From: Candidatus Kerfeldbacteria bacterium
GTDB taxonomy: Bacteria; Patescibacteriota; Patescibacteriia; UBA10025; JAHIVO01
Assembly (NCBI GenBank): GCA_047946875.1
Contig: CP181398.1
Location: 649,041-713,040 of the forward strand
DNA: 64,000 nt
Direction of reading: 5' to 3'
The notes under the pieces are model-generated. The model saw nothing but the letters and a program-made list of their open reading frames with translations, was not told the origin of the DNA and ran no database searches. The translations under genes and the position numbers were made by a program. Shown one piece after another: positions 20,053 to 21,291 of this stretch. The first letter of the stretch is position 1; the number at the start of each line of letters is the position of its first letter.

Positions 20053-20173
20053 ATTTTTTATAATTTATTATTAATTTATTTATTGTTTAAAACTCTTGAC
20101 AAATTTATGTATTTATAATTAGATATAGTAATTGTTCAAATTGTACATTGATAAAATAAACTAGGAGGAATTC

Positions 20174-20653
20174 ATGAATACGGATGTTTTACAACCATTA
20201 CCAGATGAGTATAAAGATAAAACTAGTAGCGAAATAGCGGTTTTATTGTTTGACTCATCAAAAATTAATAATACTGAGTTAGCAAATATACTTGGTATCG
20301 GCAGGACAACTCTGTGGCGATATCGGAAGAAAAAATTCTCAAAACTGATTATGGCTAATGCTATCATTCAAGCTTTGGGTTATATTCCACCTAATCTACC
20401 TCAACGGAAAATGCCTGCTACGACTTCAGATGATCAACAGCTCTACTCTGGTACAATAGTATATAGCTATTTAAATGGTACTGTAACCTACATCAAATGG
20501 TTAGAGAAAAAATCAGAGACGCTCTGTAAGGTAAAATTAGACAAATATGATAGAGAAATAGTAATAATATTTCCTTATGATATTACTGATCGTGTCTTCC
20601 GTGAGTCTAAAATAATACTAGTCAATGAAATGGTTGGTAAAATCAAACTCTAA
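20174..20653 (+). CDS. HTH-domain protein (paralog 1)
   Basis: 159 aa; LANILGIGRTTLWRY helix-turn-helix. Confidence 0.5.
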   Translation: MNTDVLQPLPDEYKDKTSSEIAVLLFDSSKINNTELANILGIGRTTLWRYRKKKFSKLIMANAIIQALGYIPPNLPQRKMPATTSDDQQLYSGTIVYSYLNGTVTYIKWLEKKSETLCKVKLDKYDREIVIIFPYDITDRVFRESKIILVNEMVGKIKL

Positions 20654-20672
20654 AATAACGGAGGTAAGAGTG

Positions 20673-21164
20673 ATGAACGATCAAGGATTGAACAATTCAT
20701 TTCCTATTATCGATCTAAATCAAGACGATGCAACATTACTTGAAACAATTTATCAAGCATTCTTATTAACTGGTGAAAACGACGTTGTTCTATCACGTAG
20801 ACTAGGAATTTCTCGTAACACCCTCCGATCTATAAAAAATGGTAACCACGGAATTCTGTCAAAATCTCTATCTATCTTGCGTAGTCTTGGATATTGCCTC
20901 ATCCTCCCGATAACTGATTCAGCATTCGAATTTCGACAGTTACCTATTGTGGTAACCTCGGCTATTGAAAATCCCGATCCGGATTGTTTTGAAGAGGTTA
21001 CTAGATGTAAGCAATATCTGGTAGATGATGGATGGGAAATTGTTCTGATTAATCGCCGTCCAATAGATGATGACAGGTATCAGTTCACTTTACATGCTCG
21101 CCGGTTGGTCCCTGAAGATTTTAAAGAAAAATCATCAAATACCCAATCTGTGGCTGCAGTATGA
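20673..21164 (+). CDS. HTH-domain protein (paralog 2)
   Basis: Start moved to the ATG 8 nt after GGAGG; LSRRLGISRNTLRSI helix-turn-helix; shares the (A/S)LGY motif with paralog 1. Confidence 0.5.
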   Translation: MNDQGLNNSFPIIDLNQDDATLLETIYQAFLLTGENDVVLSRRLGISRNTLRSIKNGNHGILSKSLSILRSLGYCLILPITDSAFEFRQLPIVVTSAIENPDPDCFEEVTRCKQYLVDDGWEIVLINRRPIDDDRYQFTLHARRLVPEDFKEKSSNTQSVAAV

Positions 21165-21291
21165 CTCCTTTGTTTATTATAAAGCGCTTTTAAGATTATT
21201 ATCTTAGGCGCTTTTTTTATTTAATGTACTTTCCAATTACTGGATAAAATCTATATTCAATAATTAAATACAAATTTCAGCCAATAACTTA

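Follow-up and report, generated by a model that had tools for sequence, protein, structure and literature searches.

Two ORFan genes split the atp operon of a Kerfeldbacteria species between atpG and atpD

The ATP synthase operon of this Candidatus Kerfeldbacteria genome is interrupted by a gap of 1,239 nt between atpG and atpD (positions 20053-21291 of the window, by which we mean the whole 64-kb stretch of DNA analysed), and the gap is filled by two open reading frames on the plus strand. Judged by sequence searches, both frames are ORFans, known from one Kerfeldbacteria species only. We favour, with modest confidence, the reading that the short spacer between atpG and atpD received a lineage-specific accessory cassette of two genes, a self-contained bicistron whose arrival uncoupled atpDC from the upstream genes.

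Organization of the interrupted operon

The gene order given by the initial annotation, atpZ-B-E-F-H-A-G, an insertion, then atpD-C and a beta-carbonic-anhydrase-like gene, was borne out, with the last gene assigned to Pro_CA_2 (PF20393).

26463-26435, minus strand: good sigma-70-like promoter (TTGACT-17-TAGAAT) ahead of atpZ/I-B-E-F-H-A
about 26068-26343, minus strand: atpZ/I
25151-26062, minus strand: atpB
24841-25089, minus strand: atpE
24268-24765, minus strand: atpF
23864-24262, minus strand: atpH
22263-23810, minus strand: atpA
21292-22212, minus strand: atpG (F1 gamma; PF00231, E 1.4e-88), ending the upstream part, C-terminus intact in end-to-end alignment with relatives
18667-20052, minus strand: atpD (F1 beta), intact, opening the downstream part (86-90% identity to relatives from residue 1)
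18216-18656, minus strand: atpC (epsilon)
17762-18190, minus strand: Pro_CA_2 gene, putative carbonic anhydrase (E 2.5e-15)
17720-17745: bidirectional terminator 3' of the atpC/Pro_CA_2 part

The locus thus shows a gamma/beta break of the split F-type ATPase operon kind, with opposite-strand genes between atpG and atpD. Both genes have the ribosome-binding sites and the terminator that the initial annotation ascribed to them, all lying within 20053-21291.

20053-20173: divergent intergenic region between atpD and ORF1, 121 nt, AT-rich
20140-20113, minus strand: candidate promoter TTGAAC-16-TATAAA, consensus match not above chance
20102-20073, minus strand: candidate promoter TTGTCA-18-TAAATT, consensus match not above chance
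20096-20101, plus strand: TTGACA, consensus match not above chance
20174-20653, plus strand: ORF1, 159 aa, basic (pI 9.3), ORFan
20673-21164, plus strand: ORF2, 163 aa, acidic (pI 4.9), ORFan
21181-21225, plus strand: good intrinsic terminator of ORF1-ORF2 (hairpin 21181-21214 and U-run)
21235-21289, minus strand: long RNA hairpin directly 3' of the atpG stop, without a U-tract

The locus recurs with 100% identity in GCA_008633345.1 (contig SWBX01001791.1) and, in the same arrangement with one SNP in 1,781 nt, in JGI metagenome 3300083231 (our loci L081 and L082, respectively). Because independent assemblies and the JGI metagenome agree, the arrangement is not an assembly artefact.

Comparison with related atp loci

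In the five closest relatives found, the atpG-atpD gap measures 20-41 nt and contains no trace of ORF1 or ORF2. Three of these relatives (L001-L003) share 55-64% identity in AtpG and two (L083 and L084) share 88-90% identity in AtpD. Neither gene was detected by tblastn in 160 related atp loci (nothing at E<=1). The short gap in the closest relatives found indicates that the insertion is derived and lineage-specific. The view that the two genes had been inserted into the operon is upheld by this comparison, which the initial annotation had itself proposed and in which the relatives do not share the arrangement. A metagenome search for closer relatives still gave a best AtpG identity of 64% and thus no finer date for the insertion.

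The atpG-atpD junction in Patescibacteria is permissive and recurrently used by small accessory or selfish genes. Of 135 Patescibacteria loci, 26 have a gap of at least 250 nt, and in this ~19% small genes of unrelated cargo occupy the junction. They include an ORF6N gene (L142), a DUF4258+DUF2283 pair that is a genuine toxin-antitoxin (TA)-like pair (L147), 23S_rRNA_IVP genes (L014, L015 and L141) and a GIY-YIG gene (L038). Some of these large gaps also hold orphan ORFs, and opposite-strand genes occur at the junction in, for example, L006, L011 and L054. These insertions resemble the Kerfeldbacteria one in junction, in size (0.3-1.1 kb), in being lineage-specific and sometimes in lying on the opposite strand, but their cargo shows no similarity to ORF1 or ORF2 by phmmer or tblastn. 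The Kerfeldbacteria insert differs in carrying two genes, both HTH-like and both ORFans. A literature search returned nothing relevant on atp-operon insertions in CPR. As a separate observation, further atp junctions besides atpG-atpD have been invaded in Patescibacteria.

Coding signals and composition of the inserted genes

ORF1 is preceded by the Shine-Dalgarno (SD) sequence AGGAGG (20163-20168, 5 nt upstream) and ORF2 by GGAGG (20660-20664, 8 nt upstream); an alternative ORF2 start at 20625, the version chosen by PGAP, gives 179 aa. Within the window, SD sites of at least 5 nt precede both inserted genes, compared with 0 of 8 atp genes and 6 of 50 core genes; atpD has no SD. This use of SD sites lends the inserted genes foreign-like signals, unlike the host core genes, and their codon usage, near the bottom of the range seen in the host, points the same way. 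In GC content and GC3, however, the insert resembles the host and bears no clear compositional mark of recent transfer. Codon-position GC declines as GC1>GC2>GC3 in ORF1 (0.40/0.32/0.28) and in ORF2 (0.51/0.37/0.27), and the GC skew turns locally to the plus strand over the insert. We estimate the chance of 160 stop-free codons at ~7e-6, because ~7% of random codons are stops at ~35% GC. The ORF1 stop ends at 20653, the ORF2 start lies at 20673 on the same strand, and a single terminator follows ORF2; we infer that the pair is co-transcribed as a bicistronic transcript. A common origin of the cassette and a neighbouring 13.2-17.6 kb island as one element was considered and rejected, both on GC3 (0.27-0.28 vs 0.43-0.53) and on the rearrangements it would require.

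Homology and predicted domains of the encoded proteins

Word-indexed searches of 5.8 billion proteins returned only the self-matches of ORF1 and ORF2, as did a repeat for ORF2 at E<=10. An exhaustive HMMER search of ORF1 against 1.84 billion representatives gave four weak matches. Three are proteins with tandem generic HTH repeats, whose scores are inflated by summed repeats, and the fourth (P0007) aligns with ORF1 residues 82-121. Searches of both proteins against Pfam, PHROGs, PADLOC, NCBIfam and PDB sequences yielded only sub-threshold matches. HTH membership was assessed with the gathering scores of PF20432, PF01381, PF12844, PF02954, PF12728 and PF02796, and neither protein reaches the gathering score in these families. 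Among Pfam families ORF1 comes closest to PF20432, scoring 20.2 bits where the cut-off is 25.8 (E 7.6e-4), and the best ORF2 matches score 12.2-12.3 bits against cut-offs of 23-30 (E about 0.17-0.26).

What stands behind the initial annotation's description of the genes as HTH-encoding is a convergence of sub-threshold matches, with at least ten HTH profiles aligning to ORF1 residues 21-56. A putative HTH of the generic tri-helical type spans residues ~14-63 of ORF1, whose C-terminal half is predicted to be beta-rich. In ORF2 a weak HTH-like motif covers residues ~36-74, and the C-terminal half is predicted as beta-beta-alpha-beta-beta. The AlphaFold2 model of ORF1 places helices at 33-40, 44-52 and 56-67, all with pLDDT below 50; single-sequence models of the two ORFs reached pLDDT of 38.6 and 44.5 and were treated as uninformative. 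A Foldseek search of the low-confidence ORF2 model against the PDB gave no match at E<=0.001. With every profile match below its curated threshold, we regard ORF1 and ORF2 as putative DNA-binding proteins.

The claim that the two genes are paralogous holds only for the N-terminal part of the proteins. ORF1 and ORF2 share 33% identity over 39 aa (BLASTP E 3e-4), and their N-terminal ~75 residues are similar well beyond shuffled sequences (z=6.2, 0/2000 shuffles), whereas no similarity was detected between their C-terminal halves (z=0.4).

Transcription signals

The ORF1-ORF2 terminator has a 14-bp stem, with an interruption, and then UUUUUUUAUUU. In the minus-strand reading the same element (21181-21225) has no more than a weak U-tail, UUUAUAAU. 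The minus strand of 21160-21295 is predicted by RNAfold to be strongly structured (-34.4 kcal/mol, z=-5.7, 0/200 shuffles), and the hairpin at 21235-21289 may stabilise the 3' end of the atpBEFHAG transcript or take part in its processing. Since the minus-strand structures past atpG lack a good U-tract, transcription may read through into atpD, in which case atpDC would not be forced, as the initial annotation had it, to use an internal promoter. No RNA genes were found in the 64-kb window by Rfam or tRNA scan.

The divergent region at 20053-20173 must hold the ORF1-ORF2 promoter and probably holds an atpDC promoter as well. The TTGAAC-N16-TATAAA site put forward for the latter is indeed present on the minus strand, but in such AT-rich DNA it is no better than chance: a 10-kb region contains 34 promoter-like sites, compared with 43 +/- 6.5 in shuffles, and the match therefore carries no statistical weight. 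An operator motif, AATTGTnCA, was also considered (three occurrences in the insert, six in the whole window) and set aside as a post hoc pick.

Origin and possible roles of the cassette

The suggestion of a toxin-antitoxin, phage or mobile origin did not gain support from any significant PADLOC, PHROGs, NCBIfam or Pfam match, from GenBank phages or IMG/VR, or from an integrase, transposase or second copy in the window. ORF1 and ORF2 are two small adjacent genes, as in TA systems, with co-transcription likely. However, neither C-terminal half matches a toxin domain or a TA or defence family in Pfam, NCBIfam or PADLOC, where the sole match (mad1, E 0.031) falls on the HTH. The best PHROGs match (E 0.006) likewise covers the HTH only. 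Searches of 50,697 GenBank phage records by tblastn (no match at E<=0.1) and of IMG/VR were negative for both ORFs. The atpG-atpD gap contains no integrase ORF and the window no tRNA, ORF1 and ORF2 contain no transposase domain, no direct repeats flank the insert, and neither the flanks (blastn-short) nor the ORFs have a second copy in the window. The flanks do share an inverted similarity, between 20101-20159 and the reverse complement of 21212-21278, of marginal significance (local score 31, where dinucleotide shuffles give 21.2 +/- 3.4; z=2.9, 34/2000, p about 0.017).

We hypothesize that the cassette landed in the short atpG-atpD spacer of one Kerfeldbacteria species. A promoter in the 121-nt divergent region would drive ORF1 (basic, with an N-terminal HTH) and then ORF2 (acidic, with a related N-terminal domain), strong SD sites would serve both, and transcription would end at the hairpin and U-run of 21181-21225. 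Of the two products, one would most likely be a small transcription factor that binds DNA and the other its partner or modulator, and the two may regulate their own promoter. Uncoupling of atpD-atpC-(Pro_CA_2) from atpZBEFHAG would be a side-effect of the insertion; these downstream genes would then use a promoter within the divergent region, perhaps with a further contribution from read-through transcripts that cross the cassette in antisense.

Three other explanations can be weighed against this one. The frames might not be genes at all but have arisen by chance in spacer DNA that codes for nothing, or the locus might be an assembly chimera; the lack of homologues for a purifying-selection test and the low-confidence structure predictions would suit this, yet we consider it highly improbable, given back-to-back ORFs of ~160 codons filling the gap in ~35% GC DNA, perfect SD sites that are rare in the genome, the codon-position gradient in both frames, an HTH-like motif at the same position in each, a terminator directly after ORF2, and a locus identical in independent assemblies and present in a separate metagenome. 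A selfish module, either a type II TA-like pair or the immunity remnant of a phage or integrative element (repressor and anti-repressor), would persist by addiction or because deletion from inside an essential operon is hard. Consistent with such a module, the two genes are small, lie side by side in one orientation and encode first a basic and then an acidic product; further points in its favour are sub-threshold resemblances to an Xre-like antitoxin HTH (PF20432), an Xre_ParS antitoxin (NF049845, E 0.018), HigA-like 3cec, PezA and phage repressor PHROGs (E 0.07-0.1), the DUF4258/DUF2283 and ORF6N genes at the same junction elsewhere, and the marginal flank similarity. Against it stand the missing toxin domain, the HTH-like character of both N-termini, the lack of PADLOC hits and of matches in phage and viral collections, the absence of an integrase, transposase or att-like repeat, and the lack of any further copy in 15 billion proteins, which would be unusual for an actively mobile module; we judge this origin unlikely.

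The divergent layout beside atpD fits a dedicated local regulator equally well, with ORF1 and/or ORF2 binding the 121-nt region to control atpD-atpC-Pro_CA_2 transcription. Regulators and their targets classically lie head to head across a single short intergenic region, as the cassette and atpD do, and a tandem AATTGTTCA/AATTGTACA at 20130-20147 overlaps the minus-strand -35 candidate, with an inverted copy at 20689. However, none of the 160 related atp loci has either gene, and the linkage is conserved in no relative. In an unbiased scan of about 1,000 k-mers, the motif enrichment was not significant once multiple testing was allowed for (the best 8-mer had p about 6e-4). That the genes inserted at this junction in other Patescibacteria are unrelated accessory or selfish ones speaks for opportunistic insertion. 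We therefore regard a local regulator as distinctly unlikely; were it real, beta/epsilon supply, and hence F1 assembly, would be tuned apart from the rest of the ATP synthase. More speculative, and improbable in our estimation, is a combined proposal: that the HTH pair was recently recruited, in this species alone, as a switch acting at the divergent promoter shared with atpDC and controlling beta/epsilon and Pro_CA_2 separately, and that atp junctions in Patescibacteria are targeted landing sites for small selfish genes (GIY-YIG, 23S_rRNA_IVP, TA pairs, ORF6N and orphans). Such targeting would point to a homing-like mechanism directed at the conserved ends of atp genes, not random insertion.

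Significance and relation to known systems

The locus shows that an operon both essential and highly conserved can accept, in a reduced CPR genome, an insertion on the opposite strand between its gamma and beta genes, and that the cargo is a true ORFan pair with a probable DNA-binding domain. By itself the finding is of little weight, and related bacteria carry small accessory genes at the junction often enough to make the Kerfeldbacteria insert an ordinary accessory insertion and a local curiosity. More useful is the comparative by-product, that about one in five Patescibacteria atp loci hold an unrelated small gene there, together with the use of SD sites by the inserted genes where host core genes largely do without. 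If this pattern holds, SD sites would be a simple mark of recently acquired genes in such genomes, and the interrupted loci would form a defined natural set of split operons in which the upkeep of ATP synthase subunit stoichiometry could be studied.

Type II TA systems with Xre-type antitoxins (HigBA, Xre-RES/ParST, HipBA) are likewise small, closely spaced bicistrons with one basic and one acidic product, and their antitoxin profiles weakly resemble the ORF1 HTH, in every case below curated thresholds. In contrast to these systems, ORF1 and ORF2 have no recognisable toxin fold, an HTH-like second protein and no relatives elsewhere. Divergent local regulators, such as those of LysR or TetR type, share the head-to-head layout that ORF1 and atpDC form across the 121-nt region, but the Kerfeldbacteria pair belongs to no known regulator family, its linkage is unconserved and its operator is only putative.

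A parallel in gene order is the atp1/atp2 split common to cyanobacteria and chloroplasts, which in cyanobacteria is ancient and conserved and places the two halves at distant loci. Cozens and Walker are said to have reported in 1987 that the F-ATPase genes of Synechococcus 6301 are divided into atp1, ending with gamma, and atp2, comprising beta and epsilon. The break point, between gamma and beta, is the same in both cases and leaves beta-epsilon as a potentially separate transcription unit. In Kerfeldbacteria, however, the two parts lie only 1.24 kb apart on the same strand, and their separation is confined to one species and was caused by an insertion.

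An interrupted ATP synthase operon

The F-type ATPase genes are divided between atpG and atpD by two plus-strand ORFs that have their own ribosome-binding sites and terminator, an arrangement for which the gene order and layout described in the initial annotation hold.

Features of the atp locus and its neighbourhood.
26343 down to 21292, minus strand: atpZ/I-B-E-F-H-A-G, F-type ATPase genes
20053-21291: atpG-atpD gap, 1,239 nt, with two plus-strand ORFs
20174-20653, plus strand: ORF1, 159 aa; AGGAGG upstream at 5-nt spacing
20673-21164, plus strand: ORF2, 163 aa; GGAGG upstream at 8-nt spacing
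21181-21214, plus strand: hairpin 3' of ORF2, then UUUUUUUAUUU; a good intrinsic terminator
20052 down to 17762, minus strand: atpD-atpC-Pro_CA_2 (putative carbonic anhydrase)
13207-17631, plus strand: island of orphan genes with raised GC (0.40-0.47) and GC3 (0.43-0.53; host ~0.2-0.3)

The window is part of the genome of a Candidatus Kerfeldbacteria member of the Patescibacteria (CPR). ORF1 corresponds to NCBI protein XOU93875.1 (locus ACNFW9_03440, 1.31-Mb contig), and PGAP places the start of ORF2 at 20625, giving 179 aa. The Pro_CA_2 (PF20393) gene at 17762-18190 is also found 3' of atpC in eight of the compared loci (L001, L002, L004, L008, L013, L020, L083, L084), and its linkage to the ATP synthase operon is kept in this clade. 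GC skew of the plus strand is uniformly negative across the window and the minus strand carries nearly all genes. The chief departures from this are the island genes and the two inserted ORFs; the cassette is therefore transcribed in the direction opposite to the atp operon, and probably also against replication.

Several features indicate that ORF1 and ORF2 are real genes. At ~35% GC, stop codons make up ~7% of random codons and the probability of 160 stop-free codons, estimated from composition, is ~7e-6, and the gap is filled by two ORFs of this length, one after the other. Codon-position GC declines as GC1>GC2>GC3 in both ORF1 (0.40/0.32/0.28) and ORF2 (0.51/0.37/0.27), and GC skew, which ranges from -0.16 to -0.33 in the flanks, becomes positive within the insert (+0.03 to +0.07), as expected if the coding strand there is plus. 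The same arrangement occurs in GCA_008633345.1, which is 100% identical over 12.5 kb, and in a JGI metagenome contig with one SNP over 1,781 nt; ORF1 is present on four contigs in total, which excludes an assembly chimera. Given these coding signatures and independent assemblies, spurious ORFs or a chimera would be a very improbable explanation.

Insertion status and recurrence at atp junctions

With AtpG as query, species-representative genomes and metagenomes each yielded 80 loci. The spacing between atpG and atpD is only 20-41 nt in the five closest relatives found: L001, L002 and L003 (AtpG 55-64% and AtpD 79-86% identity) and L083 and L084 (AtpD 88-90%). Searches of the 160 atp loci with ORF1 and ORF2 (tblastn) returned no match at E<=1. 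The arrangement is thus not one common to all relatives; the split is derived, as the initial annotation's reading of an insertion had it, and on this comparison is confined to this lineage.

Gaps of at least 250 nt at atp junctions of Patescibacteria loci.
atpG-atpD: genomes 14/65, metagenomes 12/70, total 26/135
atpA-atpG: genomes 9/68, metagenomes 9/71, total 18/139
atpD-atpC: genomes 8/62, metagenomes 6/51, total 14/113

Proteobacterial loci in the same set had no such gap (0/11). The interrupted atpG-atpD loci are L006, L009-L011, L014, L015, L031, L038, L040, L041, L048, L052, L054 and L066 among genomes, and L088, L092, L097, L103, L107, L115, L125, L126, L141, L142, L144 and L147 among metagenomes. 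Their cargo includes ORF6N (L142), a DUF4258/DUF2283 toxin-antitoxin-like pair (L147), 23S_rRNA_IVP four-helix-bundle proteins (L014, L015, L141), a GIY-YIG nuclease (L038), opposite-strand small membrane ORFs and orphans, with no gene related to ORF1 or ORF2. Patescibacteria repeatedly carry inserted genes at the atpG-atpD junction, and this unrelated cargo makes the present case another instance of something common at the site, unusual only in its two genes, opposite strand and HTH-like domain. We regard it as a cassette of small accessory genes that interrupts a conserved operon, a phenomenon in itself already known.

The inserted genes and their origin

Both proteins are ORFans: in word-indexed searches covering 5.8 billion proteins each matched only itself, ORF2 even at E<=10. 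An exhaustive HMMER scan of 1.84 billion cluster representatives gave four weak matches to ORF1 (E 6e-6 to 1e-4), three of them proteins of 5-7 tandem generic HTH repeats aligned to residues ~14-63 and the fourth (P0007) covering residues 82-121. Against Pfam, PHROGs, NCBIfam, PADLOC and PDB sequences, matches were sub-threshold only; those of ORF1 converge on residues 21-56 (PF20432 at 20.2 bits, cut-off 25.8; also HTH_8, HTH_17, HTH_7 and PDB 2ao9), and those of ORF2 are very weak (E ~0.2). The initial annotation's "paralogous HTH genes" stands for the N-terminal ~75 residues, where both carry an HTH-like domain (33% identity over 39 aa; z=6.2, 0/2000 shuffles), but not for the C-terminal halves, which have no detectable relation (z=0.4) and are either unrelated or have diverged beyond recognition. 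The ORF1 product is basic (pI 9.3), that of ORF2 acidic (pI 4.9). Single-sequence AlphaFold2 models had pLDDT of 38.6 and 44.5 and were unusable; a Foldseek search with a low-confidence model gave no match. Since every sequence-based test of family membership came out negative, the cassette is not assignable to any protein family.

The mobile, toxin-antitoxin or phage origin suggested initially finds no support. The cassette had no match in GenBank phages, IMG/VR or defence databases, no integrase, transposase, tRNA or direct repeats accompany it, and no second copy occurs within the 64-kb window; judged by sequence, it seems to bear no mark of phage, plasmid, toxin-antitoxin, defence or transposon. 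Inverted similarity between its flanks is marginal (z=2.9, 34/2000 shuffles) and serves as a lead rather than as evidence. In base composition the cassette resembles the host (GC 0.33-0.38, GC3 0.27-0.28), and its codon usage falls towards the bottom of the host's range.

The clearest oddity of the cassette is translational. In the window, core genes mostly lack Shine-Dalgarno (SD) sites: one of at least 5 nt precedes only 6 of 50, and none of the 8 atp genes has one. Both ORF1 and ORF2 do, which at a background rate of 0.12 would happen with a probability of ~0.014. Upstream regions of core genes in the window are A/T-rich, AGGAGG-type sites are carried by apparent accessory genes, and an SD site could serve to flag genes that this genome acquired recently.

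All plus-strand genes of the island have an SD core of at least 4 nt, three of the five at least 5 nt. The island lies between Pro_CA_2 and a UvrD-like helicase gene; in relative L003 the distance from atpC to the start of this helicase is 2.3 kb. The island therefore resembles a second acquisition of distinct composition beside the operon. It contains tandem paralogues (16470-17048 and 17050-17631; 75% identical over 166 aa) with no Pfam family and one sub-threshold PHROG match, whose hydrophobic N-termini suggest secreted proteins or lipoproteins. The terminators of ORF2 (21172-21225) and of the last island gene (17655-17705) have the flanks TTTATTATAAAG-stem-TTTTTTATTT in common, including an identical 12-mer, which may be coincidence or a hint at a common source. 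Within the island, a stretch of ~850 nt (13700-14550) has no convincing ORF; the ORFs there are short and overlap, the longest reaching 76 aa. It has no Rfam or tRNA match either, and may represent a gene in decay or an RNA missed by annotation. Adjoining the helicase, a 150-aa ORF (9228-9680) matches just the first 65 of 252 positions of the Virulence_RhuM profile (E 6e-24) and is probably a truncated RhuM-family gene.

Expression and proposed function

With the gene structures, terminator and comparative data as observed, we give slightly better than even chances to a joint proposal whose DNA binding, promoters and transcript structure we infer. The cassette would be a self-contained bicistronic unit, transcribed rightward from the 121-nt divergent region between atpD and ORF1 (20053-20173) and ending at 21181-21225. 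The small ORF1 protein would bind DNA, with ORF2, whose N-domain is related, as its partner. The pair would be likely to autoregulate, as is usual for small gene pairs of this kind. Leftward transcription of atpD-atpC-Pro_CA_2 would start from the same region.

An internal atpDC promoter would be plausible there. The minus strand carries two candidates, the TTGAAC-16-TATAAA picked out initially (20140-20113) and TTGTCA-18-TAAATT (20102-20073), but promoter-like matches are no commoner in this AT-rich DNA than in shuffles (34 vs 43 +/- 6.5). The host clearly uses sigma-70-like promoters, as at TTGACT-17-TAGAAT upstream of atpZ (26463-26435). Directly 3' of the atpG stop, a very stable, strand-specific minus-strand hairpin (21289-21235; z=-5.7) has many G-U pairs and no U-tract, and may stabilise the 3' end or serve in processing. 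The ORF2 terminator, read in reverse beyond it, has a poor U-tail, whereas the final operon terminator 3' of Pro_CA_2 is canonical. Partial read-through from atpG to atpD, antisense to the cassette, is therefore possible.

Two other roles were weighed. A remnant of a toxin-antitoxin-like or immunity region would account for the gene-pair layout, the opposite charges and a weak Xre-antitoxin resemblance, but is unlikely, as neither a toxin domain nor relatives nor defence-database matches were found. That the pair is a dedicated regulator of atpDC fits the gene layout; we think this quite improbable, given that the linkage is not conserved and a candidate operator motif is not significant. A known system offers a parallel: the classic atp1/atp2 arrangement of cyanobacteria and chloroplasts separates the gamma from the beta gene, the point at which the present operon is broken too. 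That split is ancient and its parts lie far apart, unlike the present operon, but it indicates that separate beta-epsilon expression is physiologically feasible.
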